Shown here piece after piece: positions 26,196 to 56,534 of a stretch of DNA of 64,000 nt. The notes under the pieces are model-generated. The model worked only from the letters and a program-made list of their open reading frames with translations, made no database searches and was not told the DNA's origin. Position 1 is the first letter of the stretch. Every line of letters starts with the position of its first letter. The position numbers and the translations under genes are program-made. The stretch spans positions 22,561-86,560 of the forward strand of contig CAYUTO010000004.1 in the NCBI GenBank assembly GCA_964447765.1. Direction: 5' to 3'. Source of the DNA: an uncultured Gammaproteobacteria bacterium (lineage in GTDB: Bacteria > Patescibacteriota > Patescibacteriia > Magasanikbacterales > UBA922).

Positions 26196-26364
26196 CTGTT
26201 CTTTTTTTGGTAAGAGATGTACTGCATGGAAAACTAGTCCGATGAGGAGCAAGTGCTGGTGAATTATTCACCACCCTTTCTCCTGACCGGACTTCTCTGT
26301 CCACCAGGTAGATCGCGAGTGCGATCTAGCGTCTTTTACCGTCACAACAAGGAGTATATCAGCC

Positions 26365-26613
26365 ATGCTGAACACCACCGAACAACGAATCCGTGCCCAC
26401 ATCACCGTTCGCGAGGAGAATATCCGTAAGACGCAGCCGAAGATAAGAGCTGTACCCATGGAGCCCGCAGACGAGATGTCTCCGACCAACAAGCAGGAAG
26501 AGGTGTCCGCATCGACGAAGCCCAACTCCCCGAAAAGGAACAAGTACATACTCATGTACATTCTACTCACCGTGGGAGCTGGTGTCGCAGTAGGTCTTCT
26601 GTTCATGCGCTGA
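26365..26613 (+). CDS. Small tail-anchored membrane protein (82 aa) in a G+C-rich islet
   Basis: Strong SD AAGGAG 8 nt upstream of the ATG. Hydrophilic N-terminus and a single C-terminal TM helix (YILMYILLTVGAGVAVGLLF). Strong hairpin terminator downstream. Confidence 0.5.
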   Translation: MLNTTEQRIRAHITVREENIRKTQPKIRAVPMEPADEMSPTNKQEEVSASTKPNSPKRNKYILMYILLTVGAGVAVGLLFMR

Positions 26614-26616
26614 GCT

Positions 26617-26708
26617 TCGTCCGATCTTAGGCCCCCTTTCCTTCGGGAAGGGGGCCTCTCGGACGAAAAAAACAAACACAAAAAGAAAACGCGTAACTGC
26701 GTTTTTTT
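26617..26708 (+). terminator. Two successive hairpins after the small ORF
   Basis: GC-rich 49-nt hairpin cgtccga...ggccccctttccttcgggaagggggcc...tcggacg, then acgcgtaactgcgt followed by ttttttt. Confidence 0.6.
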
Positions 26709-26804
26709 GTTTATCAAATTAACGAACAATAAGTGTATACAAAATAATGTTAATTATCTGAATTTTAAATTATAAAATTTCTAAATTTCGAACAATGGGG
26801 GTTC

Positions 26805-26885
26805 GGGGGTCAAAACTGTTCGAGCTCCGAGTGAAGAATAGATAGTGATACTTAGTGAGGCGAGTTTTTTGACCCCCGAAACTTT
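26805..26885. repeat. Stem-loop with a perfect 14-bp inverted repeat
   Basis: ttcgggggtcaaaa...(about 50 nt)...ttttgacccccgaa. Confidence 0.5.
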
Positions 26886-26924
26886 TTGTAAAACTTTTTA
26901 GTTATAAAAAGTTTTAGATAATGT

Positions 26925-26964
26925 ATTTAAAAAAATAAAACAAAAACCGCCCGATTAAGGGCGG
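26925..26964 (-). terminator. Intrinsic terminator downstream of the 16S rRNA
   Basis: ccgcccgattaagggcgg hairpin with a long U-rich tail on the minus strand. Confidence 0.65.
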
Positions 26965-27107
26965 CTTGTTATTGAAGATGATTCACTTAATACATGTGGC
27001 AAAAACACGATTGAACGTTTTCTTATACTTAGAACTGGCCAGATCATACTCTTGCGAGTGTAATACTGACTTTGGATATATTCTAACTTTCATTAGAATT
27101 GACTCCA

Positions 27108-28613
<1,506 letters not shown>

Positions 28614-29041
28614 TGAGTGATTTTCTCCGAAGAGAAAATTAGTGTTTGATTGTAATCAACATATTTACTCAAAAATATGTGTGATTCTCATATACTAGAT
28701 TAAGCATATGAGTTAGCTCTAAGAAAATAGACGATCAATCGGTTTTTGCCACGTGTATTACGTGAACTTATTGCGCATCCTCCGTAGAGCCTGGCGCAAC
28801 ACCGTATTAATCATTTTTGCTGTATTGTTGTTTCACATCTTCAAATTGTAAAGATCGTATCCTTTTTTTTCTTCGCTAAAAGAAAAAAGAGAAACTCTGT
28901 TGCTTTTCCAATAATGTGAATTAGGGGAAAAGCAAATATAGTCGCTCTTTTCTTAGTATCTCGGTCCAGTGACATGCTCGCCTAAGTTAAGGCTAGTAGA
29001 CTTGAGAAAAGGATAAGTTATAAATATCAGATAGCTCGCAT

Positions 29042-29070
29042 ATAGTATAAAACTCTAAGACATCTGTCAA
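29042..29070 (-). promoter_or_regulatory. Sigma70-like promoter for the 16S rRNA
   Basis: On the minus strand: TTGACA, 17 nt spacer, TACTAT, about 420 nt upstream of the 16S 5' end. Confidence 0.55.
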
Positions 29071-29118
29071 GTACCATGACAAGTCCCAATTGTTCACATA
29101 TTGGGGATAAGTCTGGAA

Positions 29119-29220
29119 TAGTCAAAAAGTCGAAAGCTAAAAGTCGAAAGTCGAGAGAGAAAAAACCTACATTACAACAAGACTTTATGGACTTTTGACT
29201 TTAAGACTTTATAGACTTTC
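29119..29220. repeat. Palindromic element with AAAGTC/GACTTT hexamer-array arms (family C), copy 1
   Basis: agtcaaaaagtcgaaagctaaaagtcgaaagtcgagag, spacer, then gactttatggacttttgactttaagactttatagacttt. Homologous to 38962..39056. Confidence 0.6.
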
Positions 29221-29947
29221 CTTTCCTCCATTCAGCGATTTTTTTATGATCCCCACTGAGAAGCACCTCGGGCACCTTCCACCCCTTAAAATCAACTGGT
29301 TTCGTATACTGTGGATACTCAACCTCAATTTCTCCCTCTCCTATACCACCTTTTTCCTTTTGCGTTTTGACATTATTAAACGTTTCATCAGTAAGAGATT
29401 CCGCATTACCTAAAACTCCTGGCACCAGTCGCGACACCGCCTCAACAATTGCTAAAGCTCCCAATTCACCACCCGCCAAAACATATGGACCAATAGAGAT
29501 TTCCTCATCAATCATATGATCTACTACGCGCTGGTCCACGCCTTCATACCGACCACAAATCAAAATAAGTTCATCAAGCTTTGCCCATGATGTGGCAGTT
29601 GATTGATCGAACTGTCTTCCACGTGGAGAAAGCAATACCGTACGTTTTTTCTGCCCAACAGTTCCCGTGGCCAGACGTTTTAATTTGGTAAGTCCAGGAG
29701 CTTTTTTGAAAGGCAATCCGTCAATTGACATAAGCGCCTCATAAATCGGATCAGGTTTCATAAGCATTCCCGCTCCCCCACCACAGAGAGTATCATCCAC
29801 CGTCTTATGTTTGTCATGCGTAAAATCACGAATATACAAAGCCCGAACGTCAATCAATTTCTTTTTTTGCGCACGACCAAGAATCGTCTCATTAGCATAT
29901 GACGTAATAATTTTTGGAAAAAGCGTGAGGACTGAAAATCGAATCAT
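29201..29947 (-). CDS. trmD: tRNA (guanine37-N1)-methyltransferase TrmD
   Basis: SPOUT/TrmD motifs: FSVLTLFP..., LLSPRGRQFDQ, ILICGRYEGVDQRV and GPYVLAGGELGAL. Confidence 0.85.
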   Translation of the reverse strand: MIRFSVLTLFPKIITSYANETILGRAQKKKLIDVRALYIRDFTHDKHKTVDDTLCGGGAGMLMKPDPIYEALMSIDGLPFKKAPGLTKLKRLATGTVGQKKRTVLLSPRGRQFDQSTATSWAKLDELILICGRYEGVDQRVVDHMIDEEISIGPYVLAGGELGALAIVEAVSRLVPGVLGNAESLTDETFNNVKTQKEKGGIGEGEIEVEYPQYTKPVDFKGWKVPEVLLSGDHKKIAEWRKGKSIKS

Positions 29948-30059
29948 AATGTTTTATAGTATACCAGGAACCAGCCTATTAAAAAATCCTCGCAACGAGG
30001 AATTCAGTCGTCCGCACCCATCAACCACACGAAGTGGAGATGGACGCGGACGTCGATAG

Positions 30060-30497
30060 TCAGCTCATCGGAATGACGTCGATATCACCGAAAAGCGACT
30101 TGATCTCCTCGGGCGTGCCAAAGAGTTTTTTGTCCTCATCCGACAGGTAGACCCGCAGATACCCGGAACGCTGTAGAATCGCGTCGTGTACCAAGTAGAA
30201 CACCACCACCTCGTAGAATCGATCCACGATCTGATTGTGGATCTGCCCGATCAGGAGCATGGCACGAGGCTTCTCCTCATAGTACGCAATACTGCGCACG
30301 TACAGAGGGAGTTTATCAGGGAAGACACCTCGCCCGTCGACGTAGAGCGGGGCAGGCTGACGATCCGACGGATCGTAGTAACTGCGATTGGACGCGTACA
30401 CATCCCAGATATTTGGGTTGTGCTCACTCGTAACGATCGGAAGGGTGATAAAATCTTTCCCTTCCTCACCAACAGACACCGTAAACGTAGCTTCCAT
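30060..30497 (-). CDS. Hypothetical protein (145 aa) in a G+C-rich islet
   Basis: ORF with SD GAGAGGA 6-7 nt upstream of the ATG at 30497. The ORF-track N-terminal extension was not used. Confidence 0.45.
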   Translation of the reverse strand: MEATFTVSVGEEGKDFITLPIVTSEHNPNIWDVYASNRSYYDPSDRQPAPLYVDGRGVFPDKLPLYVRSIAYYEEKPRAMLLIGQIHNQIVDRFYEVVVFYLVHDAILQRSGYLRVYLSDEDKKLFGTPEEIKSLFGDIDVIPMS

Positions 30498-30683
30498 GAC
30501 GATCCTCTCACGGCTTGGTAAAAACACGATGCTGGCACCGTAAACCAGACAAGAAAAAATATCATATACGATAAAAAATGTCAATAATAAAATTCCTCTG
30601 TATTAAGGAATTTTGACTCTATCGCATCTGCCGAAGCCTAAAAGCCCCGACAGATGCGATCACCGATACAGAAATCACGATGC

Positions 30684-30977
30684 TCACCGATCCAGAACGA
30701 ATGTGTACGTCACCGCTCGCACCCAGAAATGAAGGAACTTCTCCGAAGGTTTGTAGTACCGATCGATCAAGACGATTCCGTCGTAATTGATAGTACCAAA
30801 CCATACCGTTGGTTCAAGCACCACCTCTTCCTGCGTACCACACTCAGGTTTCCAGTTGAGATAAAAATTACTACCCTGGAGACCCGCGAAAAAAACACGC
30901 CCCTTCCGTGTTCTTCCGTTTGAAAAATGCTCGGTAACCGAAACACCAACAAAATCAATATCACAGAGATCTTCCAT
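30684..30977 (-). CDS. Hypothetical protein (97 aa) in a G+C-rich islet, upstream partner of 30060..30497
   Basis: SD GAGGAGG 9 nt upstream of the ATG at 30977. A hairpin separates the two genes. Confidence 0.45.
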   Translation of the reverse strand: MEDLCDIDFVGVSVTEHFSNGRTRKGRVFFAGLQGSNFYLNWKPECGTQEEVVLEPTVWFGTINYDGIVLIDRYYKPSEKFLHFWVRAVTYTFVLDR

Positions 30978-31102
30978 CCTAGACCCTCCTCAATCTATGT
31001 TGTTTCTGCATATATTTTTTACAATATTTTATATCCAAAGTCAATAAAAGTATTTTACAAATAAACATGCGTCTAGTATGATAAAAAAATAATAAAAATA
31101 CT

Positions 31103-31546
31103 ATGCCCGAACGACACACCATTATCCCCGCGTCATACCTCGTACTCAAAAAAGAAAACAGTGTACTTCTCACTCGTCGCTATAATACTGGCTTTGAAGA
31201 TGGAAACTATAGTATGATCGCAGGGCACGTCGACCAAGGTGAAACATTTACCGAAGGCATGATTCGTGAAGCACACGAAGAAGCTGGTATCACACTTTCA
31301 CCAAATGATATACAATTGGTACATATAATGCACCGAAAATCACATGTCAACGCTGAAGAAAGAATCGACGCATTTTTTCTTGCAAGTACCTGGTCAGGAA
31401 ATCTGGAAAATAAAGAACCACACAAATGTGATGATTTCTCATGGTGTGATATAAATAACTTACCAGAAAATACGATCCCCTACATCAAAGCTGCTGTGGA
31501 ATGCGTAAAACAAAATATACTGTATAGTGAATACGGCTGGAAATAA
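31103..31546 (+). CDS. NUDIX hydrolase
   Basis: Nudix box GHVDQGETFTEGMIREAHEEAGI. Confidence 0.8.
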   Translation: MPERHTIIPASYLVLKKENSVLLTRRYNTGFEDGNYSMIAGHVDQGETFTEGMIREAHEEAGITLSPNDIQLVHIMHRKSHVNAEERIDAFFLASTWSGNLENKEPHKCDDFSWCDINNLPENTIPYIKAAVECVKQNILYSEYGWK

Positions 31547-31557
31547 AAAATATTAAT

Positions 31558-32130: not shown

Positions 32131-32133
32131 CTT

Positions 32134-32658: not shown

Positions 32659-32672
32659 TTTCAATGTTTGAA

Positions 32673-35742: not shown

Positions 35743-36033
35743 AGTCTGATTTGCTAAATTAAACTTATAAATAAATTAAAATGCCCCTGGTAGGGCACGT
35801 TCAGACAAACAAAATGAGTGTTTATCGAACGTTTGAGAGCTAATACAAGCTCTGAGACGCTTCACCCTCGAAAATTGAGGATTACTACGTTCTTATACGT
35901 CTTTAGGTGACGTAGGCAGAATATACCTGATATAAAGACATATGTCAAGACAAGAAGTCACCATCGTTGACCAATCCAGTCATACACTATACTATATCCG
36001 AAGTTCAACAGTTCTGTTCTTTCAGGGAGGAGT

Positions 36034-37014
36034 ATGGAAAAATTTCCGAAGCATGTTCTTAGCTCAGACCAGTTCAGTCCCGAAATGATCGAATACCTCT
36101 GCGGTCAGGCAGAAGACATCCGTGCGATCATGGAGACTGGCAAGAAACGCCAGCTTCTCGGAAAACTGCACGGAATGAGCATGTTCACAGTATTCTACGA
36201 GCCTTCGACTCGCACACGTTTTTCCTTCGAACAGGCAGGAAACGTGTGTGGTATGCACAAGTGCTCTACCGAGAATGCCGAGATAACCTCTTCAGTCTCC
36301 AAGGGTGAAAACCTAGAAGACACGGTGAAAACGCTCTCGGGATACTACCCAGATGTATTCGTGCTGCGGCACAAAGTGAAAGGAGCAGCAAAACGCGCAG
36401 CAGAAGTAATCGATGAGAAGAAAAAGAACGTGCACATCATCAACGCAGGTGATGGTAAAGGAGAACATCCTTCACAAGCACTCCTCGACTTCTACACGAT
36501 CTGGCAAGCCAAAGGAAGAAAGCTCGACAATATCCGAATCATGTTCGGAGGCGATCTGAAATACGGGCGTACTGTTCGTTCTCTCGCGCGTGTACTTGCC
36601 AAGTACCCGGGGATTACGATGACGTTCGTAGCGCCTGAAGCGCTCCAGGTCGCAGAAGACATCCGTGCAGACCTCGACACCCATCAGATACCCTACACGC
36701 TCGAATCAGATCCGATGAAGGCGTTCCCGGAAGCAGACGTGATCTATTGGACGCGACTGCAGAAAGAGAGAATCGAAGACGAACGTACACGTATCGAACT
36801 CGAGGAAATTGAACGAAAAGGAACGTACAATATCGGATCGCCACAGCTCTCAGTCATGAAGCCAACCGCGAATATCCTTCACCCACTTCCCCGTGTCGGA
36901 GAAATCCTGCACGAAGTGGACCAAGATCCACGGTCGTGGTACTTCACACAAGCTGAAAATGGGCTGTACATCCGTATAGCGCTCCTGCTGGAGCTGCTCC
37001 GCGAGTCGGAGTAA
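36034..37014 (+). CDS. pyrB: Aspartate carbamoyltransferase catalytic subunit (orphan; G+C-rich)
   Basis: STRTRFSFE, HPSQALLD, GDLKYGRTVRSL and HPLPRVGEI motifs closely match PyrB. SD GGGAGGAG upstream of the ATG. Confidence 0.85.
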   Translation: MEKFPKHVLSSDQFSPEMIEYLCGQAEDIRAIMETGKKRQLLGKLHGMSMFTVFYEPSTRTRFSFEQAGNVCGMHKCSTENAEITSSVSKGENLEDTVKTLSGYYPDVFVLRHKVKGAAKRAAEVIDEKKKNVHIINAGDGKGEHPSQALLDFYTIWQAKGRKLDNIRIMFGGDLKYGRTVRSLARVLAKYPGITMTFVAPEALQVAEDIRADLDTHQIPYTLESDPMKAFPEADVIYWTRLQKERIEDERTRIELEEIERKGTYNIGSPQLSVMKPTANILHPLPRVGEILHEVDQDPRSWYFTQAENGLYIRIALLLELLRESE

Positions 37015-37016
37015 CC

Positions 37017-37055
37017 AAAAGCCGGCCTCGAAAGAGGCCGGCATCTACATTTTTA
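37017..37055. terminator. Hairpin terminator between the convergent pyrB and M50-protease genes
   Basis: aaaagccggcctcgaaagaggccggc followed by a T-run. Confidence 0.6.
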
Positions 37056-39056: not shown

Positions 39057-39061
39057 ATTCG

Positions 39062-39134
39062 TCGGGCTGACACGACTTGAACGTGCGGCCTCATGACCCC
39101 CAGCCATGCGCTCTACCAACTGAGCTACAGCCCG
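39062..39134 (-). tRNA. tRNA-Pro (anticodon GGG)
   Basis: Manual fold of the reverse complement: acceptor CGGGCTG/CAGCCCG, D-arm GCTC-AGTTGGTA-GAGC, anticodon stem CATGG/TCATG with loop CTGGGGG, T-arm GCACG-TTCAAGT-CGTGT, discriminator A, no encoded CCA. Confidence 0.8.
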
Positions 39135-40126
39135 ATTTAAGCCAATTACCAATAAAACAATTATCAACTAACAAATTGCATAAAATTGTATTTTTGTTAG
39201 TTGTTCCTTGCTCATTGTTCCTTATCCCCAGCATATTAAAACAAAAAACCCTTTTTTTCAAGAGTTCCTTGTATGACCCCAGAGAGGTGCAGTACGAAAT
39301 ACTACTCCTGAATGAAACAGGTGGGTAGCCGCACTTCTAGCCCACGGGCTAGAAAAATATAGGCCTCCCTATGTAGTATATTTGTAGAATAGTATATGTA
39401 CTGTACCACTAGAACCAGGGTCAATTCAAATATACCAAGACGTTCAAAATTGTGCAAATGTGACTCATCCACTACTTAGAACTCTCTAAATACTGGAGGA
39501 GAGACGACCAGGTGAAACAGGTCGCCGAGAAACAAAAGAACAATATACAGCCATGAAAGATCAAGCGCGATAACGCATAAGTCGAGATACCAACTCACAC
39601 GTTACCACTCGATTCTACTCTGACCTCACCTAAGAGTCGTGATTACCTCGCTGCCGTTTGACAGGAGTCGAGACAGGCGCCACTTGTGCCTCAGGGAGGA
39701 AGCGATGTCGACATCCGCGAAGGGAAGCAGGCTCGGGACGAGCCATCTCACTGCTTCGCGGAGGAACCGCTGACTTTTTCTTGAACTTGGCCAAATTCTT
39801 GGCCCACACTTGATACACAGAACCTTCAGGCATGATTACCCTAACGAGCATGCTCGATTGAATATTCTCAAACTTTGAGAAAACTCGCACAAAGCGGAAT
39901 TCAGTCTAAATAAAAATCTTTTTACACCAACACCAACTTACTCTAAAGACATTGAATAAGAATACAAAAATAAAAAAAACTTGTAAAGAATAGTACTACT
40001 AATTCCTTACAAGTTATTCACAGATACATACCACTGTATTCCTATGATGAAAAACAATGGCATATGGGCGATCGATGAGTGGAGTACTCATCGATCGCCC
40101 GGGAAAAAAGAACAAAAACTCGAGAA

Positions 40127-40345
40127 TCAGGCCGCACTAGCGACCTCAGGGACAGGTGGATACGCCGGCGTGTAAGCGCCCGTCCTCGTAACCGCGATGG
40201 TCCGCTTGCACTCACAACCGACGCGATAATCACCATTGCTGCATGGCTCCACGGTATCGATCTTACCGGCACCGCACGAACACTGGAAGTGCTCGCCTTT
40301 CTTGAGATGCTCAATCCGCACCACTCCTTTAATTCCCATAAACAT
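40127..40345 (-). CDS. Small Cys-rich protein (72 aa) in a G+C-rich islet
   Basis: SD AAGGAGAG 7 nt upstream of the ATG at 40345; six Cys (QCSCG...C...GCEC). Several overlapping frames are also open in this GC-rich DNA. Confidence 0.35.
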   Translation of the reverse strand: MFMGIKGVVRIEHLKKGEHFQCSCGAGKIDTVEPCSNGDYRVGCECKRTIAVTRTGAYTPAYPPVPEVASAA

Positions 40346-40459
40346 ACACACTCTCCTTGTGTGAAATAAAGACAAGAGAAACGAAAGATGGGTTGACGAG
40401 TGCGACAACGTGAGAGCTGGAGTTTCCAACTAAGCACGTTGCCGCTCTCAAACGATCGA

Positions 40460-40669
40460 TCAGTCGCCGAACTTGTACCGCAACTCCGAGCGGTCGCGAG
40501 AAGCGATCTCACGATCCCAGACCGCAGCGATCCGGTCGTCGAGGAGGACGGGCGCGGTATTCTTGCGCTCCTTCTTACGCGAAGGGGCGAGAACCGCCTC
40601 CGAGGACTTGATGGACTTGGCGTCGAGGTTCAGCTGCTGTGACGGCAGCTTGGAATTATCTCCAGACAT
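40460..40669 (-). CDS. Small basic protein (69 aa) in a G+C-rich islet
   Basis: ATG at 40669 preceded by GGGGGA; the choice of frame is uncertain. Confidence 0.3.
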   Translation of the reverse strand: MSGDNSKLPSQQLNLDAKSIKSSEAVLAPSRKKERKNTAPVLLDDRIAAVWDREIASRDRSELRYKFGD

Positions 40670-41171
40670 AGCATTCCCCCGAAATTCTCTCGCATGGCAT
40701 TGCAAGAGCAAAGTCGCTCATACAGGCTTCCCCACCGCGGGTAGACTTGTTCAAGCGAGTTTTATATATACACCACAATGTACAAATAACACTCGCCGAT
40801 CAAAGTCTACAAACGTAAATTTCAATATAAACTTTTGAAAGAACTATTTCCCGATATGCGGGAAGAAGAATGTACAAAAGGATACACACTCTTCTTCACG
40901 TATATTTTCCAGAAAAAAAGACCCCAAACACTTGATTGTGCATGGGGCCTAGAAGGTTTAAGGTTACATGAATCTATTTCATCTCAAACCACTTCTTACC
41001 CCATGCGTATAATCCACCATTGCAAAACAAAAGTTCACCTTGCAAAGGCGGTTGAGAATGAGAGTAATAATTGTATGAGAAAATAATTTCATAAGTTTGT
41101 TACAACACATATCTGACTATAACTCTGAATTTTTACGCGGTCAAGTTTTTTGAAGTTACTTATCCACAAGT

Positions 41172-42780: not shown

Positions 42781-44826
42781 TCAGAGTTCATCCAATGACT
42801 TCAAAAAACTTCGAACCGGCTTATTACTATCATCTGCCTCATAGGTAATATCATCAACATCATCACTCGGATCAGAAAACACGAGCGTACTCGATCCCTG
42901 ACTTCGCTCATGAAGAATAAGACTCCGATCAATCTCTTCGATAAATCTACTCGGTCCCTGAAGGACGCTAAATGAACTCGCGAGCAATGGATATGAGAGG
43001 TATAAAAACTTTTTTGCACGAGTAATTGCAACATAGAATAATCGCCTCTCTTCTTCGACACCATCCACTTCCCTCATCGATCGCTCACTCGGAAATTGAC
43101 CAGCAGAAACATGGAGGATAAATACAGCTTCCCACTCCAGTCCTTTGGCTTGGTGAATAGTAGAAAGTACAATTTTTTCAGTATCTTCTTCTGCATTTTT
43201 TGCAACTTTACCCGAATAACTCTCCTGCAAACTTGCTTCAGCAAGAAATTCTGATAATCGTGATTCTCCAGATTCTGTAATATATTGATCCGCAAATAAG
43301 GCAAGTTGTTCAATATCTTGTAATCGTTCACGATAATCTGGATATTCTGCTTCCAGATAGTCTTTGTAGGGCGAAGCCAAAATTCCACGAATCATTTCTC
43401 CAGGACCCCGAGTCTCAGACGCAATAACTTCATTCCAAATTCGAATAAACTCTCCCCAACCCAATTGTCCACGTACAGAAAGAATACTACCTACATGGTC
43501 AATTGGGTCGTTCGGTGCCAGTCCACGAACCATATCAATAACTTTTTCAGCACCCGACGGACCAATACCAGTCTGCATGGTAAGTACCCGCATCCACGCA
43601 ATAGAGTCTCCTCGGTTCGCAAATATACGCAAATATGCGAGTGTGTCCTTCACGTGTGCGCGTTCAAAAAATCGCACACCTCCACGGTAGTCATAAGGAA
43701 TTTGTCTCCGTGTAAGTTCAATTTCAAGTGATTGTGAATGGAATGCCGCACGAAATAACACAGCGATTTCAGACAGCGGAACTCCCTCTTCTGATAATTC
43801 AAGAATTCGGTCGGCGATAAATCGAGCTTCTTCAAATGCATCGACAAATGCATGTACTTCGGGCTTGGTAAAACTCTCCCGGATACTTCGCAATTCTTTT
43901 TTATACTGTTTTTTATTCTGTGCAATTACTTCATTAGCAACTCCGAGAATATCTGGAGTGGAGCGATAATTCGTTTCAAGTCGAAAAATTTTTGCATCGG
44001 TGTGTGTATGTTCGAAATCAAGAATGTTCGTTATATCAGCAGCACGGAATGAATAAATGCTCTGAGCATCATCCCCCACTACCAATAGGTTCTGATGAAC
44101 AATAGCAAAAAACCGAATAATAGACGCCTGAATCTTATTCGTATCCTGATACTCGTCTACTAAAATATACTGAAACTGTGTTGCGTATTTTTTTCGCACC
44201 TGTTCTGATGATGAAAGTAATAAAAATAAATTCACCAGTAAATCATCAAAATCCATGACATTGCTTTCTCGCTTTCTTCTGCCATAATCTTCTGCAATGC
44301 GGGATAATGCATCAGCAAAATCTACCCACTGTGGATGTTTTTCGAGGAGCACGTCCCCGACCGTGCGCTCTGCATTTCGTGCAAAACTTAAGAGTGATGC
44401 AACCACTGCTGGTGACGGAAATTTTTTATGTGATCGCTGCACCCCTTCACTCCCAATACAAAGTTTGATCATGTCACGCGCATCTTCTGAATCAAGAATA
44501 TTAAACGTATTTGCATAACCAAGTAATGGCGCATACTGTTTGAGTATGCGATACGCAATATGATGGAATGTTCCAGACCACGGTAATTTCACTCCACCCT
44601 CTGTAAACGATTCGACGCGATGAAGCATTTCTCGTGCAGCTTTATTGGTAAAAGTGAGCAACAAAATTGAAGAAGGATCAATACCCTTCTCCAATAAATA
44701 TGCAACTCGATAGGTAATTGCGCGTGTCTTCCCACTCCCGGCTCCCGCAAGTACAAGACACGGTCCATCACCATGCAACACGACATCCAGTTGTTCTGTA
44801 TTTAATTCTTTTTGAAAATCGATCAT
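42781..44826 (-). CDS. pcrA: ATP-dependent DNA helicase, UvrD/PcrA/Rep family
   Basis: N-terminal LNTEQLDVV...LVLAGAGSGKTRAITYRVAYLL (Walker A), DEYQDTN (motif II), and a C-terminal UvrD-like region. Confidence 0.85.
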   Translation of the reverse strand: MIDFQKELNTEQLDVVLHGDGPCLVLAGAGSGKTRAITYRVAYLLEKGIDPSSILLLTFTNKAAREMLHRVESFTEGGVKLPWSGTFHHIAYRILKQYAPLLGYANTFNILDSEDARDMIKLCIGSEGVQRSHKKFPSPAVVASLLSFARNAERTVGDVLLEKHPQWVDFADALSRIAEDYGRRKRESNVMDFDDLLVNLFLLLSSSEQVRKKYATQFQYILVDEYQDTNKIQASIIRFFAIVHQNLLVVGDDAQSIYSFRAADITNILDFEHTHTDAKIFRLETNYRSTPDILGVANEVIAQNKKQYKKELRSIRESFTKPEVHAFVDAFEEARFIADRILELSEEGVPLSEIAVLFRAAFHSQSLEIELTRRQIPYDYRGGVRFFERAHVKDTLAYLRIFANRGDSIAWMRVLTMQTGIGPSGAEKVIDMVRGLAPNDPIDHVGSILSVRGQLGWGEFIRIWNEVIASETRGPGEMIRGILASPYKDYLEAEYPDYRERLQDIEQLALFADQYITESGESRLSEFLAEASLQESYSGKVAKNAEEDTEKIVLSTIHQAKGLEWEAVFILHVSAGQFPSERSMREVDGVEEERRLFYVAITRAKKFLYLSYPLLASSFSVLQGPSRFIEEIDRSLILHERSQGSSTLVFSDPSDDVDDITYEADDSNKPVRSFLKSLDEL

Positions 44827-44948
44827 AGATATAATCTCGTAATATAAACTCGTAAGCTACGTAACCAGGTACGTAGCTTTGTTGTCTCCTTGCGGCGGTA
44901 AGAATAGTACATTCCTCCCGCCGCTCTTGAGTTATCCCCCCACTCTAC

Positions 44949-45251
44949 TCACCCAGCGAGATTGGTTTCTTCCGGAACCTTCAACTTGCTCTGCCTACGC
45001 ATAGCCTTTTTGGAGAGCTTGGACTCGAACGGCACCACCTTTCGATCAGATGAGCCATTCTCGGCATCAGACTCTGCGCTTCGCAAAGACACTTCTTTGG
45101 AATGGTGAGGACACTTAGTGTAATCACCTCCATTGCGATAGCAGCCAGTACATTCACTCGCCACTGTATTGATGACTGTATGATCCTCCGGATCGCCGAC
45201 TGTAATTTTGGCACAAACACAGCCACACCCGCATTGAGCGATCACGTACAT
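44949..45251 (-). CDS. Small Cys-rich protein (about 100 aa) in a G+C-rich islet
   Basis: CGCGCVC...CTGC...NGGDYTKCPHH. Start chosen at the ATG at 45251 without a clear SD; the NG(G)DY-x-C motif resembles the one in 40127..40345. Confidence 0.35.
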   Translation of the reverse strand: MYVIAQCGCGCVCAKITVGDPEDHTVINTVASECTGCYRNGGDYTKCPHHSKEVSLRSAESDAENGSSDRKVVPFESKLSKKAMRRQSKLKVPEETNLAG

Positions 45252-45399
45252 AGGGCCCCGCACTGTAATGAGAAAGGGTAAAGGACAAAAAATTAAATGA
45301 ACGATAAATCGATACAACCTCCTTTACTAAAGAAATACACTGATTCAAATCATAGCCCCAATTGAAAAAAAACACAACTTCTGTTAGTGTTAGCACTAT

Positions 45400-47146: not shown

Positions 47147-47241
47147 ACCTTGACAAATACGCTCACGTGGAGTAAACTGTCCCGGTCTCTAAACAAACGT
47201 ATACGAGAAGTATACGTTTTGTGTTCCAAAGGAGGAACCAC

Positions 47242-47430
47242 ATGCAAGACATCATCAAGTCGTCCCAGAATCAGATCATCCCAGCCGCCGACCTGTCACG
47301 ACTCGTTCGTAACCAGATCCGTCTGCGGATCAAGAACTTCGGGATGCAGCTCGGTTCCCGAGCCATCGCTACCATGATGGGAAGCTCGCTCTCCGTCGGC
47401 CTCAGCGACAGGAGGAAGTCCAAGAAGTGA
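47242..47430 (+). CDS. Small basic protein (62 aa) in a G+C-rich islet
   Basis: SD AAGGAGG 6 nt upstream of the ATG at 47242; a hairpin with a U-tract lies downstream (about 47440..47545). Confidence 0.4.
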   Translation: MQDIIKSSQNQIIPAADLSRLVRNQIRLRIKNFGMQLGSRAIATMMGSSLSVGLSDRRKSKK

Positions 47431-47581
47431 CAGATGTTGGAGCGGGAGGACAGAGATACAATCAAAAACCACCCGCTACCACAAGATATTCTAAATAGAT
47501 TGGAATACGTTGTGGGAGAATCCGGGTGGTTTTTTGTTTAATTAGCCAATAGGAAAATACAAATTTGTATTTTCCTATGAA

Positions 47582-48791: not shown

Positions 48792-48829
48792 CGAGCGTAG
48801 AAAAACTCTACCTTAGAGTAAGCATTTTT

Positions 48830-50158: not shown

Positions 50159-50176
50159 AGCATCGTCAACTGTACC

Positions 50177-50704: not shown

Positions 50705-50708
50705 AATA

Positions 50709-51836: not shown

Positions 51837-51838
51837 AG

Positions 51839-52876: not shown

Positions 52877-53925
52877 AAATAATTTTCTTTACCGTCTTCT
52901 TGAAGTTTAGATAACAACGCTTTGATTTCAGGAACCTGATCTTTATGAACCACCAAAAGTGCATCCTTGGTATTCACCACAACCATCCCTTTCAAACCAA
53001 TCACAGAAACTAATTTATCAGGCTCATCATTGAAAACAAAAGAATCACTCGAACCCATTTCATAAGTATTACCAATCGTAACAGTTTGATCAGGTCTACT
53101 CTGTAATGCTTCTTTGAGAGCATACAGTGTTCCTGGATCACTCCAACCCAAATCTACGGGCAATACAACTGCCTGTGATTGATCAATTTTTTCAATAATT
53201 GCATTATCAAAAGATGAAACCAGCACACTCGAATATTCTGTTTCAAGATTGCGAGATCCCTCAACCATTGCAGAGACTGCAGTATATAGGTCATGTTGAT
53301 GTTCCTGGTACAGTCCTAGTACAAAATCAATGTCTGCAACAAAATATCCCGGATTCCACTGCCACATACCCGAATCAAACATCTCTTCACATTCAACAAG
53401 ATCTGGTCGATATTTCCATCCCTCAAAAGTAAACACTCCTTCTCCAATCTCTTCACCAACTTGTATCCAACCTAAATTATGATTAGGAAATCGTGGTTTT
53501 TCTGCGAGAAAAATAAATCGATTACTATTTTCAGCAATCAATTCTTCTGCACGAACAAGAGCAGCGCGAAAATTGTCTGGTCGATCCATAAAATGATCTG
53601 CCCAGAGCAAGGCAACCGTGCCTGAAATCCCCTTCTGTTTGAGTCGCAAAAGTCCGAGCAATACTGCTGCAGCCAAATCTCTCCGCGCAGGCTCACTCAT
53701 AATATGGTCCACTGGTATTCCAGGGATCTGACCCTCGACCAATTCTACATATCGACTATTAGTTGAAATATAGACATGCTCAAGCCCAAACGGCGAGATT
53801 CGCTCGACCGCCATCTGAAGCGTAGACTTGTCATCTTTTAATTTTTCAAACTGTTTTGGAGACTGTGACCGGCTAATAGGCCACAATCGAGTGCCTGCTC
53901 CACCTGCAAAAATAAGAAAATTCAT
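52873..53925 (-). CDS. Mannose-1-phosphate guanylyltransferase-like nucleotidyltransferase
   Basis: N-terminal FAGGAGTRLWP sugar-nucleotidyltransferase motif; start trimmed to the ATG at 53925 (the track ORF starts at a GTG). Confidence 0.75.
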   Translation of the reverse strand: MNFLIFAGGAGTRLWPISRSQSPKQFEKLKDDKSTLQMAVERISPFGLEHVYISTNSRYVELVEGQIPGIPVDHIMSEPARRDLAAAVLLGLLRLKQKGISGTVALLWADHFMDRPDNFRAALVRAEELIAENSNRFIFLAEKPRFPNHNLGWIQVGEEIGEGVFTFEGWKYRPDLVECEEMFDSGMWQWNPGYFVADIDFVLGLYQEHQHDLYTAVSAMVEGSRNLETEYSSVLVSSFDNAIIEKIDQSQAVVLPVDLGWSDPGTLYALKEALQSRPDQTVTIGNTYEMGSSDSFVFNDEPDKLVSVIGLKGMVVVNTKDALLVVHKDQVPEIKALLSKLQEDGKENYL

Positions 53926-53936
53926 AGATACGTACC

Positions 53937-54503
53937 TTACCACAAGAAACTAAATGGTTCAATAATATAATACAAAGCCAGTGGTAACAGCGCCAAAATA
54001 GCACTAGCTACAATAAATCCCCCCACAATATCACGAGGATAATGCACTCCTACATATACCCGAGAAAATGAGACAAAAATAGCAGAAATATACATGATGG
54101 CCATTAACCATAGAGGCGTCGAGGGTAGGAACAGTAATACTCCCGCGAGAAGAAAAGCACCAATAGTATGATCAGAAGGAAACGATTTCCAGGTGCCCAC
54201 GGTATGTATGAGTTGTCTACTCTCAGGAAATTCAATTCGTGGACGAGGATGCTTGAATAAAACAGCAAAAAGATAACTAACCATCTCAGCACAAATAAAC
54301 GCAATAATAAATAACTCAAGATAAAGTTTTAACCAAGAACTGTTCCCCTGACTCCATACATACAATCCATAGACAGTAACCAAAACAAGCATGAGAAAAA
54401 CTAAAATATTGGCACAAAAAATCATAAATCGATCACGACGAGGATTTTTTCCAATAGACGCGTTAATCCTCAAAAATAATTTGTGGCTCCAAGATTGTTT
54501 CAT
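53937..54503 (-). CDS. PAP2-family membrane phosphatase
   Basis: KxxxxxxRP...PSDH...SRxxxxxHxxxD motifs (KHPRPR, FPSDHT, SRVYVGVHYPRD). Confidence 0.7.
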   Translation of the reverse strand: MKQSWSHKLFLRINASIGKNPRRDRFMIFCANILVFLMLVLVTVYGLYVWSQGNSSWLKLYLELFIIAFICAEMVSYLFAVLFKHPRPRIEFPESRQLIHTVGTWKSFPSDHTIGAFLLAGVLLFLPSTPLWLMAIMYISAIFVSFSRVYVGVHYPRDIVGGFIVASAILALLPLALYYIIEPFSFLW

Positions 54504-54512
54504 ACGAACCCT

Positions 54513-55622
54513 TTATTGTTTGGATTTAATAAACCTAAGATACGCTTCGACAAATTCATCTAATTCTCCATTCAAAATAGCGTCCGTATCTGCAGTCTCA
54601 TGTCTAGTGCGAACATCTTTCACCATTTTATAAGGCTGCAATACATAGGATCTAATTTGATTCCCCCATTCAGCGCTCTTATGTTCTCCACGAAGTTTCA
54701 GTCGTTCTTCCTCTTCTTTTTCATCCTGAAGCTTAAGCAACTTTGAAAGCAATACTTTCATTGCAGTTTCTTTGTTTTGTAATTGTGATCGTTCATTCTG
54801 ACATTGCACCGTAATCCCCGTAGGAATATGAACTAACCGCACAGCTGAATAAGTAGTATTTACGCTCTGCCCACCTTTTCCACCTGCCATGAATGTATCA
54901 ATACGAAGATCTTTGGGATCAATAGTGACCGCATCAGCACTTTCAACCTCAGGAATTACTTCAATCAAAGCAAAGGAGGTGTGTCGCATCTGTTCAGCAT
55001 CAAACGGTGAAATTCGTACCAGGCGATGGGTACCATGCTCACTTTTCAGATGACCGTAGGCGTAACGCCCTTCAACTCTAAAGGTTACTGATTTAATCCC
55101 CGCTTCATTCCCTCGTGATTCATCAATCATGATTGTATTCCAACTTTTTTTCTCAGCATAACGCATCACCATACGAAGAAGCATCTCCGCCCAATCTTGA
55201 GCTTCAGTCCCTCCGCTCCCCGCATGAATGGATACAATCGCACCAAGTTTATCATGCTTTCCACTCATCAAAACCAAAAATTCTAATTTTTCAAACTTCC
55301 TCTCCAACTCTTCTGTTTTTGTTATGACATCAACCTCGAGTGACTCATCCGGACTTTCCACCAAATCTTGTGCAAACGAAAAAAGCTCACGAGTTTCTTT
55401 CTGAAGAGTTTCCCATGTTTCAATTTCAGACGCCAAACTCTCTCGCTGTTTTGATACTTGTCCAGCTCGCTCTGAATCGGTCCAAAATGCAGGATCCTGC
55501 ATACTTTTTTCCAAATGTACCACCTGCTCTTTAAGCTCATCAATCCGAAGAAGTTTCCACGTATCAGTGATTTTAGTATCAAGCGTTTCTAGTCGTCCAA
55601 TTACGTCTTTAATAGTACTCAT
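54513..55622 (-). CDS. prfB: Peptide chain release factor 2 (single uninterrupted ORF)
   Basis: SPF tripeptide (RISPFDA) and GGQ region (GGKGGQSVNTT); QCQNERSQLQNK as in RF2. 369 aa. Confidence 0.9.
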   Translation of the reverse strand: MSTIKDVIGRLETLDTKITDTWKLLRIDELKEQVVHLEKSMQDPAFWTDSERAGQVSKQRESLASEIETWETLQKETRELFSFAQDLVESPDESLEVDVITKTEELERKFEKLEFLVLMSGKHDKLGAIVSIHAGSGGTEAQDWAEMLLRMVMRYAEKKSWNTIMIDESRGNEAGIKSVTFRVEGRYAYGHLKSEHGTHRLVRISPFDAEQMRHTSFALIEVIPEVESADAVTIDPKDLRIDTFMAGGKGGQSVNTTYSAVRLVHIPTGITVQCQNERSQLQNKETAMKVLLSKLLKLQDEKEEEERLKLRGEHKSAEWGNQIRSYVLQPYKMVKDVRTRHETADTDAILNGELDEFVEAYLRFIKSKQ

Positions 55623-55784
55623 AATAGAGCTAGTGTAACGAAAATAGAAGGATAATTCAAGTATAAAAATGAAGAAGCCCGGACCGTTGTTACACGATTC
55701 GGGCTTCGGTCATAGTCCGAGTCGCCACAGCAGACCGGGGTCTGAAATGATAGGATGTCGAACTAATGTTGTGTTGTAGTTCCG

Positions 55785-56534
55785 TCAGGTCGGGAGGTAT
55801 CCCGACGCAGAACCGTTGTACGGACTAGCTTCATCGATCCAGCGTGCACTGAAATACAGACAATCCATGTTCTGAATATTGAAGTTCGGGGCGCACATTT
55901 CTCGTCCAAGGAGATCCAACGGATCGTATGCATCTCCAGCACAATCGATATTCAAATCACTACGATGCTGCAGACGTTCAGGATGCGTCAGAAGCATGGT
56001 CCCGACCATGTATGAGTCGAGACCGAACTCATTTCGACCGAACATCTCACGCGCTCGACGGATCGAACGTCCGCGGTGACGGAGTCCGAATTGAGCAGGA
56101 ATGATGAGGATATCGCCCGACTGTTGTTCCGTGAGCCGCGTGAGCCATGTCCAGTGCAGAGACTTCGTGCGGTGTATCTGCTGCGGAACGAACTTGGAAT
56201 TTCCAAGACGCACGCCCGTGCCACGACTCAGACGAAGCGCTGCCAGCACATGAGCCAACTGATTTGTCTCTTTTTCAAACGTACGAGAGTCACTACCATC
56301 ATGGCAGTACAGATTCTTCGGTCGGACGAGAGCGAAGGGGTCCTCCACCCACCTGGGAATCTTGAGGTTCGGATACACCTCGCGCATGTACCGCAGAGCA
56401 GGATCAGGATCCAGATTCGACCAGTGAGACCGGATGATGTCGATCTGGTCCTCCACACTCTTCGGCTTCTCATAGCCAGAGTAATAACCCCACTTGGACA
56501 CCTTCTCTTCGTTAGCGAATCGGTTGCTCATCAC
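55785..56534 (-). CDS. Hypothetical protein (249 aa) in a G+C-rich islet
   Basis: Uninterrupted ORF, visibly GC-richer than its neighbours, with a hairpin downstream (gaagcccg...cgggcttc); no recognisable domain. Confidence 0.45.
   Translation of the reverse strand: MMSNRFANEEKVSKWGYYSGYEKPKSVEDQIDIIRSHWSNLDPDPALRYMREVYPNLKIPRWVEDPFALVRPKNLYCHDGSDSRTFEKETNQLAHVLAALRLSRGTGVRLGNSKFVPQQIHRTKSLHWTWLTRLTEQQSGDILIIPAQFGLRHRGRSIRRAREMFGRNEFGLDSYMVGTMLLTHPERLQHRSDLNIDCAGDAYDPLDLLGREMCAPNFNIQNMDCLYFSARWIDEASPYNGSASGYLPT

Follow-up and report, generated by a model that had tools for sequence, protein, structure and literature searches.

Integration hotspots and replacement-type flexible genomic islands are concepts that reportedly go back to Oliveira, Touchon and Rocha and to Rodriguez-Valera and colleagues, whilst the phage ‘morons’ are said to have been described by Hendrix and colleagues. 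GC-rich RNA genes in AT-rich genomes were reportedly the subject of work by Klein, Misulovin and Eddy in 2002, and RNA genes are the usual cause of GC peaks in such genomes. The genomes of CPR bacteria are tiny and highly syntenic, and to our knowledge little is known about where and how these bacteria gain new genes. The locus considered here lies in a 64-kb stretch of DNA, analysed at its full length (the window), from a member of the CPR, Candidatus Magasanikbacteria. It carries seven small GC-rich islets between core genes, and it is reasonably, if not strongly, probable that these are accessory cassettes swapped at fixed hotspots within a CPR-internal, not an actinobacterial, gene pool.

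Composition of the islets

The first-pass annotation had described seven GC-rich islets among AT-rich core genes, and windowed GC together with GC3 confirm all seven. The GC of the window is 41.3% overall; in 300-nt windows of the backbone, with the islets and the 16S rRNA gene masked, it has a mean of 0.405 (sd 0.035, maximum 0.500). The islets lie at 48-52% against 40.5% in the backbone, an excess of 8 to 11 points, and their 300-nt peaks stand 3.1-5.2 sd above it, with the lowest peak in islet 5 (z 3.1) and the lowest mean GC in islets 2 and 5:

Islet 1 (26230..26710, plus strand): mean GC 0.516, 300-nt peak 0.560
Islet 2: mean GC 0.483, 300-nt peak 0.560
Islet 3: mean GC 0.499, 300-nt peak 0.540
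Islet 4: mean GC 0.500, 300-nt peak 0.587
Islet 5: mean GC 0.483, 300-nt peak 0.513
Islet 6: mean GC 0.517, 300-nt peak 0.537
Islet 7: mean GC 0.519, 300-nt peak 0.573

Beyond the islets, the 300-nt scan found GC above 0.50 nowhere in the window except in the 16S rRNA gene (27109..28612, minus strand; Rfam RF00177, 1436 bits, full length; GC 0.512), an eighth GC-rich block that the original list had missed; the inverted repeat 26982-27006 / 28742-28766 is the 16S processing stem. GC3 ranges from 0.24 to 0.37 in 31 backbone genes, and the core genes tuf, fusA, rpsG and rpsL (0.29-0.34) are as AT-rich as had been stated; in the islet ORFs it is 0.49-0.81. The excess is confined to codon position 3, GC1 and GC2 being core-like: the islets are GC-rich because they favour codons ending in G or C, whatever the amino acid, and do so in a manner unlike that of highly expressed genes (CCG 0.36 versus 0.07; CTG 0.29 versus 0.03). 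The dinucleotide distance delta* is 0.106 for the islets versus 0.037 +/- 0.012 in 500 random backbone sets (z = 5.6), a signature that may follow simply from the high GC3 of coding sequence. The borders are sharp, GC3 being 0.347 in the 30 flanking codons versus 0.311 farther out. This deviation from the host in GC, GC3 and delta* is characteristic of DNA shaped by a compositional regime other than that of the AT-rich core.

Cargo and turnover at the islet sites

The islets contain about 10 ORFs of 62-326 aa, which are given here with the associated signals:

26365-26613, plus strand: candidate 82-aa ORF of islet 1, hydrophobic C-terminus, AAGGAG SD site
30060..30497, minus strand: islet 2 gene I2a (145 aa), GC3 0.66
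30684..30977, minus strand: islet 2 gene I2b (97 aa), GC3 0.49, GAGGAGG SD site
35950..37041, plus strand: islet 3, pyrB cassette (leader, SD, ORF, terminator)
36034-37014, plus strand: aspartate carbamoyltransferase ORF (pyrB), GC3 0.57
39630..39890, minus strand: islet 4 gene I4a (at most 86 aa, start codon uncertain), no SD site
40127..40345, minus strand: islet 4 gene I4b (72 aa), four-cysteine zinc-ribbon-like, GC3 0.62
40460..40669, minus strand: islet 4 gene I4c (69 aa), GC3 0.79-0.80
44892..45380, minus strand: islet 5 slot, between tgt and uvrD
44892-44924: conserved terminator stem of islet 5, GCGGCGG...CCGCCGC
44949-45251, minus strand: islet 5 gene I5 (100 aa), CxC...CxxC protein with basic tail, GC3 0.52
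~45345-45380: left border of islet 5, promoter-like, conserved
47150..47539, plus strand: islet 6 slot, between spout and queA
47150-47178, plus strand: islet 6 promoter, TTGACA-N17-TAAACT
47242-47430, plus strand: islet 6 gene I6 (62 aa), GC1/2/3 0.48/0.42/0.81
47460-47539: long conserved bidirectional terminator of islet 6
55785..56531, minus strand: islet 7 gene I7 (248 aa), CPR-wide DGR variable-protein family, C-type lectin fold

The SD sites and GC-rich hairpins attributed to these genes are indeed present: nine of the ten ORFs have their own SD site (the exception, I4a, is the one of uncertain start), a strong hairpin of -13 to -39 kcal/mol lies 3' of nearly all of them, and at least one cassette, that of islet 6, comes with a promoter. 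The description of the cargo as small orphan genes does not hold for every gene, as islet 7 has more than 1,300 homologues. For I2a, just two related clusters exist among 1.84 billion representative proteins. I2a shares 55% identity with the gene at the corresponding site of the relative L030, is without a match in Pfam, NCBIfam and PHROGs, and is a narrow, lineage-restricted family nearly unique to the clade. Its neighbour I2b has homologues at the corresponding site in L030 (74%) and in L008 and L033 (33%). The islet 1 ORF (GC1/2/3 = 0.54/0.40/0.68) is followed immediately by the -39 kcal/mol hairpin, and we infer that it is coding; it has no homologue at the corresponding site in L030 and L033, which hold other GC-rich cores of ~300 nt without a convincing ORF.

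The identification of pyrB in islet 3 stands, with TIGR00670 matching at 282.8 bits (cut-off 236.95), NF002032 at 272.7 (cut-off 263), and both carbamoyltransferase domains, PF02729 and PF00185, present. The gene is preceded by the SD site GGGAGGAG and the cassette ends in the terminator GCCGGCCTC-GAAA-GAGGCCGGC. Its limits were set by alignment to the empty site of L003, where it replaces 64 nt. At that site pyrB is found in two of 13 genomes and is missing in nine of the 12 relatives that cover it, where the gaps are too short for it (L003, L005-L008, L015, L030, L033 and L012); L032 has a gap of 879 nt with other content. The second copy, in L009, is only 55% identical at the amino acid level, and no other covering relative has a pyrB match. 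The closest homologues are 54-56% identical, the named ones belonging to Saccharibacteria, Sungbacteria and Acidobacteria.

Islet 4, between ndk and tRNA-Pro, is GC-rich as claimed but comprises three cassettes and not one islet, a conserved AT-rich spacer (39893-40023) parting the first from the other two. I4a adjoins a 6S-like RNA (a sub-threshold 6S match) and tRNA-Pro, beside which no att-like repeat was seen, and is 53-64% identical to ORFs of L003 and L005, with mismatches rising from codon position 2 through position 1 to position 3. I4b has the SD site AAGGAGAG and a 15-bp GC hairpin, and in its homologues (L003, L005 and L032) the cysteines C22, C24, C44 and C46 are invariant. I4c has homologues in L002, L003, L005 and L007, and its divergence at four-fold sites is 0.19-0.21 versus roughly 0.26-0.56 in adjacent core genes. 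The cargo sets at this site vary among relatives. Changes in the cargo are balanced (179 GC-to-AT versus 172 AT-to-GC), and its GC is 49.5-51.6% across three genomes, with no decay toward AT.

Turnover is most evident in islets 5 and 6. Between tgt and uvrD, three unrelated cargo families occupy the slot within the same promoter and terminator borders, in genomes whose helicases are 94-95% identical. The I5 alleles of L002 and L003 are 96% identical and that of the window is 38% identical to either, at ~95% helicase identity for all three; the gene tree of this one family is clearly at odds with the core genes. In islet 6, the promoter is followed by a conserved 5' UTR hairpin and SD site, and in L002 and L005 another ORF sits in the slot with promoter, UTR, SD site and terminator kept. 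GC3 is 0.82 in the I6 homologue of L008 and 0.77 in that of L009, so that the family lies at 0.77-0.82 versus 0.31-0.45 in the core genes of its hosts.

Islet 7 encodes a protein whose C-terminal ~40 residues correspond to the variable repeat (VR) and whose fold matches are to the C-type lectin fold. It is 40% identical, across 99% of the query, to P0042 of L034, a protein with a VR (6725-6856) and template repeat (TR, 7207-7338) in which 24 of the 26 mismatches fall at TR adenines, making it homologous to an adenine-mutagenised target. Relatives of 47-53% identity are CPR or without a name, and among the best 120 matches the named ones are almost all CPR, the exception being one of 38% identity labelled Candidatus Humimicrobiaceae. 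The 64-kb window contains no further copy of the I7 3' end (a cognate TR), and no reverse transcriptase or Avd was found among its scanned ORFs. Between the 87%-identical proteins P0001 and P0002 the differences lie mostly outside the C-terminal segment, with no hypervariability confined to the VR; only two or three VR residues differ, and there is therefore no sign of ongoing diversification. I7 would be a variable protein of the DGR type whose retroelement has been lost or lies elsewhere. The divergence of I7 at four-fold sites is 0.23 versus 0.48 in the adjacent prfB. In a host of 55% GC, homologues of I7 have a GC3 of 0.89 versus about 0.6 in their neighbours, and one homologue lies at the margin of an element of 55-58% GC that encodes a serine recombinase and a TrwB-like ATPase.

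Origin of the cassettes

When relatives are compared, the content of the islets varies, being absent or replaced by alternative cargo at the pyrB, tgt/uvrD, spout/queA and ndk/tRNA-Pro sites, whilst GC-richness at these sites is shared by all covering relatives, including those with as little as 62% helicase identity. The slots appear to be old and clade-wide, with content that turns over whilst flanking core genes are 94-95% identical. The four-fold-site divergence of I7 and I4c is unlike that of their neighbours, and these cassettes therefore coalesce at other times than their flanks. The I7 homologue at the margin of an element with a serine recombinase also speaks for exchange, and the CPR affiliation of almost all named I7 homologues for a pool within the CPR. 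The proposal of horizontal acquisition is upheld in that codon usage and dinucleotides look foreign, borders are sharp, content patchy and islet 5 incongruent with the core, and it is supported that the islets behave like horizontally exchanged accessory DNA. It fails as a series of seven independent recent imports, because the same sites are GC-rich in relatives and the islet 4 cargo shows no decay toward AT. Under the exchange reading, fixed intergenic slots among conserved Magasanikbacteria core genes would house small accessory cassettes; a cassette might first enter by illegitimate insertion or on a mobile element, and would later spread and be swapped between related genomes as the conserved flanks, made up of core genes together with shared promoters and terminators, recombine homologously, so that no integrase would be needed. 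In agreement with the first-pass annotation, no integrase or transposase was found at 25-57 kb; there is no mobility gene at any islet, no repeat among the islets or at the junctions flanking the pyrB cassette, and no sign of tRNA-linked integration.

Several observations count against exchange. The balanced changes in islet 4 are unlike those of ameliorating imported DNA, and the stable high GC3 of I6 and the GC3 excess of I7 in a 55% GC host point the same way. No vector was found that carries the signature of the islets (that of the L028 element is closer to the backbone than to the islets), and neither phage or PHROGs matches nor mobility genes or repeats accompany the islets. The relative with the 87%-identical I7 has a prfB of 84.5% identity, consistent with vertical descent. 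The islets might be vertically inherited, fast-evolving small genes whose GC3 is kept high in situ by silent-site selection, with the structure or stability of the mRNA as one possible target, or by a repair or conversion bias particular to the locus; this is a possible but rather unlikely account. It agrees with the balanced changes in islet 4, with the occurrence of the slots and of the families I2b, I4a-c, I5 and I6 at the same position clade-wide, with a cassette GC3 that is constant over hosts of differing GC, with GC3 enrichment of the I7 family in unrelated hosts of 40% and 55% GC, with the reduced synonymous divergence of I4c and I7, and with a fold stability of the islet ORFs somewhat above that of dinucleotide shuffles (mean z -1.4 versus -0.09 for backbone segments). 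The folding excess is modest and uneven, however, with z ~0 for I1 and I6; biased conversion over tracts should lift the GC3 of the flanks, which is not raised; and the 96% and 38% identities of I5 at equal core distance are impossible under clock-like divergence. Nor does vertical inheritance account for three unrelated cargo families in one slot of 94-95% identical genomes, or for the patchy pyrB.

Several independent recent imports from a high-GC donor outside the CPR, such as the actinobacterial host of an epibiont, would explain GC-rich codon usage and sharp borders, and the Humimicrobiaceae match of I7 could be cited in its favour. This origin is very improbable: the organism belongs to Magasanikbacteria and not to Saccharibacteria, with whose epibiont life a parallel had been drawn, and no islet gene points to the proposed actinobacterial donor, or to any identifiable one, since the best pyrB matches reach 54-56% with none of the named ones actinobacterial, the named I7 matches are almost all CPR among the best 120, I2a is nearly unique to the clade, and the islets recur at the same sites in distant relatives. 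Just as little probability attaches to the islets being GC-rich structured non-coding RNA genes. This holds for the eighth block; the ORFs first listed for islets 1, 4 and 6 seemed nonsense, and the islet 1 sites of L030 and L033 are GC-rich without a convincing ORF. In Rfam, however, islets 1, 4, 5 and 6 had no match at E <= 10, and no islet had one at gathering score; tmRNA was not found; the 16S gene, tRNA-Pro and the sub-threshold 6S match all lie outside the islets; and the three-base GC period, correctly spaced SD sites, protein-level conservation, codon-position-dependent mismatches and invariant cysteines argue for coding sequence. An assembly chimera or contamination is conceivable in a metagenome-assembled genome, and in one relative a slot adjoins a scaffold gap, but it is the most improbable account of all, as islets 4-6 and islet 7 recur unchanged in independent Logan contigs of another assembly, and more than 10 independent relatives carry islets at the same sites.

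Exchange within the CPR thus remains the preferred reading, in which gene flux would be concentrated in a few very small slots, with compositionally distinct cargo, within a core region that is otherwise rigid and takes in the neighbourhood of ribosomal protein genes, tuf and fusA. If this is general, GC3 peaks would be a cheap marker of accessory and host-interaction genes in AT-rich CPR genomes, including small proteins overlooked by gene callers. Simple import and subsequent amelioration do not account for the high GC3, which persists across the clade and is seen also where unrelated CPR hosts encode DGR variable proteins. It is a doubtful, speculative idea that Magasanikbacteria, and perhaps the CPR more widely, have chromosomal ‘expression slots’ with a conserved promoter, 5' UTR and terminator around hypervariable small ORFs (many zinc-ribbon-like, plus a DGR-type lectin), in which G- and C-ending codons would be an actively maintained second compositional equilibrium and not a remnant of import, reached through a mutational or fixation bias that is directed at these loci and linked to diversification.

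Comparison with known systems

The local GC peaks on an AT-rich background resemble those of GC-rich RNA genes, as the 16S gene illustrates here, but the seven islets have codon periodicity, protein-level conservation and no match to an RNA family. Islet 7 resembles the DGR variable proteins Mtd and TvpA in its homology to a protein with an adenine-specific VR/TR pair, its C-type lectin fold matches and its C-terminal VR-like segment; it differs from DGR systems in that TR, Avd and reverse transcriptase are missing from the 64-kb window and that the VR is near-invariant against the 87%-identical relative. The islets are, like integron cassettes, small, mostly single-gene, interchangeable at a site and provided with hairpin-forming 3' ends, whereas they are scattered singly and not arrayed, a promoter forms part of the unit in at least islet 6, no integrase was found at 25-57 kb, and their hairpins vary in sequence and length and share no attC-like consensus. 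Phage morons are likewise self-contained units of SD site, ORF and terminator (with an own promoter in at least islet 6), of deviating base composition and set between two genes in conserved order, yet the islets lie not in a prophage but in the chromosome of a cell, with ribosomal and housekeeping genes around them, and have no phage or PHROGs matches. With integration hotspots and flexible genomic islands, the islets share fixed positions between conserved core genes, cargo that is unrelated or deeply diverged in close relatives, and a plausible exchange by flank-based homologous recombination that makes a site integrase dispensable. They differ in their size (0.3-1.1 kb with one to three genes, as opposed to tens of kilobases), in the shared promoter, UTR and terminator that at least two slots keep around a variable ORF, and in a cargo with a higher GC content than the core, the opposite of what is usual in acquired DNA, which tends to be AT-richer.

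Base composition and coding content of the islets

Windowed GC analysis bears out the first-pass description of seven GC-rich islets (26230-26710, 30060-30980, 35900-37050, 39600-40720, 44940-45320, 47150-47470 and 55640-56560) within a backbone of about 40% GC. The GC content of the window is 41.3%, and 300-nt windows of the backbone, with the islets and the 16S rRNA gene masked, have a mean GC of 0.405 (sd 0.035, maximum 0.500). Mean GC in the islets ranges from 0.483 to 0.519, and their 300-nt peaks, at 0.513-0.587, stand 3.1-5.2 sd over the backbone; the lowest peak is that of islet 5, and the lowest means are those of islets 2 and 5. Windowed GC gave no comparable peak in 1-26 kb or 57-64 kb. 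An equally strong block, which the earlier list of seven had left out, lies at 27109-28612 and was identified with Rfam as the 16S rRNA gene (1436 bits). This gene (reverse strand) is solitary, with no 23S or 5S gene in the 64-kb window, and is bracketed by a processing-stem inverted repeat of 25 nt (26982-27006 and 28742-28766; 92% complementary).

The borders of the islets are sharp, and GC3 in the 30 core codons closest to an islet is 0.347 vs 0.311 farther off. In strand-symmetric dinucleotide signature, islets and backbone are separated by a delta* of 0.106, compared with 0.037 +/- 0.012 (maximum 0.094) for 500 random backbone sets. Within the islet set, one half resembles the other (delta* 0.045), and the islets of relatives lie within 0.03-0.04 of those of the window, also where their gene content (cargo) is non-homologous. 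This common signature may be partly due to the high GC3 of coding DNA, and is given little independent weight.

The longest mechanical ORFs of islets 1, 4 and 6 give nonsense translations, and for this reason non-coding RNA was tested first. It was rejected: a search of the whole window against Rfam at the gathering score gave no match in any islet, nothing was found in islets 1, 4, 5 and 6 at E <= 10, and ARAGORN detected no tmRNA in the window, its sole result being a tRNA-Pro at 39061-39134. Next to this tRNA, 39272-39424 (reverse strand) is likely to be a 6S RNA; it is ~80% conserved in all relatives and matches RF00013 over its full length at 36.4 bits, which is under the gathering score of 46.4 (E = 9.6e-6 in 661 nt). 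Shorter ATG-start ORFs with upstream Shine-Dalgarno (SD) sites were then considered, and ten islet ORFs were found to have a codon-like composition (named by islet number):

26365-26613, forward strand, I1, candidate ORF of 82 aa
30060-30497, reverse strand, I2a, ORF of 145 aa
30684-30977, reverse strand, I2b, ORF of 97 aa
36034-37014, forward strand, pyrB (islet 3), ORF of 326 aa
39630-39890, reverse strand, I4a, ORF of at most 86 aa
40127-40345, reverse strand, I4b, ORF of 72 aa
40460-40669, reverse strand, I4c, ORF of 69 aa
44949-45251, reverse strand, I5, ORF of 100 aa
47242-47430, forward strand, I6, ORF of 62 aa
55785-56531, reverse strand, I7, ORF of 248 aa

These ORFs have a GC3 of 0.49-0.81, with GC1 and GC2 like those of core genes. 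The GC3 of 31 backbone genes is 0.24-0.37, with tuf, fusA, rpsG and rpsL at 0.29-0.34. The strong SD sites and terminal hairpins noticed in the first-pass annotation were likewise recovered: nine of the ten ORFs have an SD site (e.g. AAGGAG, GAGGAGG and GGGAGGAG), the exception being I4a, whose start codon is uncertain, and a hairpin of -13 to -39 kcal/mol lies 3′ of nearly all ten. Conservation in relatives supports the reading of the islet ORFs as coding: mismatches in I4a, I4b and I6 are ordered position 2 < position 1 < position 3, the I4b and I5 families have invariant cysteines, and the I2a alignment shows good conservation. For I1, composition and signals suggest a coding ORF. The islet-3 gene, earlier named pyrB, is that of a genuine aspartate carbamoyltransferase, with a match to TIGR00670 of 282.8 bits (cut-off 236.95); the genome, as do most CPR genomes, probably lacks the other enzymes of pyrimidine synthesis. 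None of the nine other ORFs has a match in Pfam, NCBIfam or PHROGs. For I2a, AF2 gave an unusable model (pLDDT 47), a metagenome scan with I5 as query found no relatives, and the I5-family alignment is too divergent for use as a scan query.

Shared slots and variable cargo

Of the interpretation proposed from the sequence, horizontal acquisition finds support, as hotspot slots (intergenic sites, written here as x|y after the adjoining genes) with swappable cargo from a CPR-internal pool; the setting of Saccharibacteria living on Actinobacteria does not. When GTDB species representatives were scanned with the UvrD-like helicase (42781-44826), the matches formed a graded series of Candidatus Magasanikbacteria genomes, from 95% to 50% identity, and the organism is therefore not a Saccharibacterium. 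Several Magasanikbacteria records are wrongly labelled ‘uncultured Gammaproteobacteria’. Gene order is conserved among the relatives from fusA to prfB, as it is across trmD, the 16S gene and tuf on the other side (loci obtained via TrmD homologues). Both 39.7-47.3 kb and the islet-7 region recur without any difference in an independent Logan assembly, so that a local chimera is ruled out. On the reverse strand, 56674-59868 (1064 aa, FG-GAP repeats and fn3) and 59930-63922 (1330 aa, NHL repeats and fn3) encode two very large proteins of surface type, which are backbone-like in composition; neither is rpoB or rpoC.

GC-rich islets are found at the same intergenic sites in every relative, down to locus L012 (62% helicase identity); the sites in common are 16S|o209, trmD|nudix, rpsL|o267 (in some genomes only), tRNA-Pro|ndk, uvrD|tgt and spout|queA. 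Sequence comparison indicates that the cargo of these sites is not stable. At the pyrB site, relatives covering the site have no pyrB match, with the exception of L009, and the gap is merely 224-661 nt in nine relatives that lack the gene. The L009 pyrB, at the same site, has 55% amino acid identity, compared with 78-94% for neighbouring genes. An alignment to the empty L003 site sets the limits of the cassette (the GC-rich gene unit within a slot) at ~35950-37041, where it stands in place of 64 unrelated bases, with no repeat at either junction.

The tgt|uvrD slot, which holds islet 5, has three unrelated cargo types among the relatives: a CxC...CxxC family in the window, L002, L003, L007, L008, L015 and L009; a different small cysteine-rich protein in L004 and L006; and a protein of 155-171 aa with an HNH-like motif in L005 and L012, whose HNH identity was set aside as the motif lacks Pfam support (E = 0.2). 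The borders of the slot are conserved irrespective of the cargo between them, and consist of a promoter-like block ending in TATGAT or TATAGT and a terminator stem, GCGGCGG-loop-CCGCCGC. Movement of one family between slots was not supported, the I4b family and the L004/L006 zinc-ribbon proteins giving an hhalign probability of 5%. In L008, L009 and L015 a conserved hydrophobic 38-aa ORF (MKFMSDLLDSYLEIAAMIVWSVAGAYLLPVMCGMSIAE; e.g. L008 5489-5605) lies upstream of the CxC...CxxC protein, which suggests a two-gene cassette. In the helicase, the window, L002 and L003 share 94.6-95.4% identity with one another, whereas the I5 protein is 96% identical between L002 and L003 and 38% identical between the window and either; at equal helicase distance this is impossible under clock-like divergence, and the pattern is read from these alignments as allele replacement.

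At spout|queA, a promoter (TTGACA-N17-TAAACT), a 5′ UTR hairpin, an SD site and a long terminator are conserved in all genomes. The window, L008 and L009 have an I6-type ORF there, and L002 and L005 have an ORF of a different type. The initial reading that islet 6 is missing from L003 was downgraded, because a 100-N scaffold gap with duplicated flanks (L003 1334-1433) adjoins the queA|spout junction and makes the apparent absence uncertain.

The I4 genes at tRNA-Pro|ndk are common to the window, L002, L003 and L005 at 47-66% amino acid identity (82% for the partial L002 copy), compared with 89-98% for the adjoining core genes; in L006, L008/L033, L015 and L009 the site has different sets of GC-rich ORFs. 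Within islet 4, an AT-rich terminator/promoter spacer (39893-40023) splits this site into two slots, and is 94-97% identical to L008 and L015 over 34-36 nt, with non-homologous GC-rich cargo on either side. Three relatives carry at this site a 23S_rRNA_IVP/bAvd-like four-helix-bundle gene (L003 7047-7397, L009 14282-14632, L015 3422-3823) of backbone-like GC3 (0.25-0.26), which is absent from the window. A conserved AT-rich mini-gene lies 3′ of ndk (40912-41145, reverse strand), with a promoter (TTGACC-N17-TATAGT, 41116-41145), a hydrophobic 37-aa ORF (MKLFSHTIITLILNRLCKVNFCFAMVDYTHGVRSGLR, 40979-41092) and a terminator; it matches no Rfam family, and its changes between relatives are largely at synonymous third positions.

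Synonymous divergence of the cassettes is uncoupled from that of their flanks: it is 0.23 for I7 vs 0.48 for the adjacent prfB, and 0.19-0.21 for I4c vs roughly 0.26-0.56 for neighbouring core genes.

Donors and the islet-7 family

Nothing in the searches with pyrB, I2a or I7 points to the high-GC actinobacterial host that had been suggested as donor. The best non-self matches of pyrB among 5.8 billion proteins are 54-56% identical, with named matches at 48-50% in Saccharibacteria, Sungbacteria and Acidobacteria; two clusters among 1.84 billion representatives are related to I2a; and no match to I7 was returned by tblastn from 50,697 phage records. I7 has 1,351 homologues at E <= 0.001, none with a Pfam domain, and those with names belong to Andersen-, Sung-, Kaiser-, Lipton- and other CPR bacteria, apart from one labelled Candidatus Humimicrobiaceae. 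The form of I7 on record is the 248-aa ATG-start protein; the 249-aa GTG-start form has no exact-sequence match.

On an Andersenbacteria contig (L034), the I7 homologue adjoins a bAvd gene and a reverse transcriptase (RT). A 132-nt repeat links the 3′ end of the homologue (6725-6856) with an intergenic copy (7207-7338), and 24 of the 26 mismatches between the two fall at adenines of the intergenic copy, the pattern by which a diversity-generating retroelement (DGR) is defined. L034 6001-8799 comprises a complete DGR, namely a target gene with VR, a TR, a bAvd gene on the opposite strand and the RT, which is called as two overlapping ORFs (7739-8401 and 8332-8799). By homology I7 is a DGR-type variable protein. 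It shows no sign of current diversification, since the 64-kb window holds no template repeat for it, no RT or Avd was found among the window ORFs scanned, and its differences from an 87%-identical relative lie mainly outside the variable-repeat segment. Another homologue lies at the edge of a 55-58% GC element that adjoins 44-48% GC DNA (contig L028), and the family therefore does travel on mobile elements. This element (L028 1-10800; serine recombinase, TrwB-like ATPase, PD-(D/E)XK nuclease, RuvC and HTH protein, with the I7 homologue at its end) is probably an integrative mobile element.

Persistence of high GC3 and likeness to known systems

The codon shift of the islets is global, G- and C-ending codons being raised for every amino acid (AAG from 0.24 to 0.65, CTG from 0.07 to 0.29, CCG from 0.19 to 0.36 and ACG from 0.20 to 0.42). 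The codons preferred in islets are exactly those avoided by highly expressed genes, and translational selection was therefore rejected as the source of the high GC3. DGR-like mutagenesis across whole genes would be expected to deplete adenine specifically; A and T at third positions of the islet ORFs are reduced in equal proportion, and this explanation was likewise rejected. The lack of GC3 spill-over into flanking codons speaks against biased gene conversion over recombination tracts.

Imports that decay towards the composition of their host should show mostly GC-to-AT changes. For the islet-4 cargo, a three-way alignment (window, L003 and L005; 1,222 columns, about 25% divergence) gave 179 GC-to-AT vs 172 AT-to-GC changes, and the cargo has a GC content of 49.5-51.6% in all three. 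Three-taxon parsimony polarisation is biased, with an AT-to-GC excess at core third positions (227 GC-to-AT vs 367 AT-to-GC), so that the islet-4 counts indicate an absence of decay and not a precise equilibrium. Selection on silent sites that keeps the high GC3 in place is thus a possible rival explanation, and other observations agree with it: the GC3 of the I6 family is 0.81, 0.82 and 0.77 in hosts with a core GC3 of 0.31, 0.45 and 0.42, I7 homologues in unrelated hosts exceed their neighbours in GC3 (0.52 vs about 0.36, and 0.89 vs about 0.6), and the folding of islet ORFs is slightly more stable than that of dinucleotide shuffles (mean z -1.4, compared with -0.09 for backbone segments).

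The closest anatomy to the window cassettes is that of integration hotspots and replacement-type flexible islands, and likewise that of phage morons. Unlike these systems, the window cassettes are miniaturised and, unusually, GC-richer than the core.
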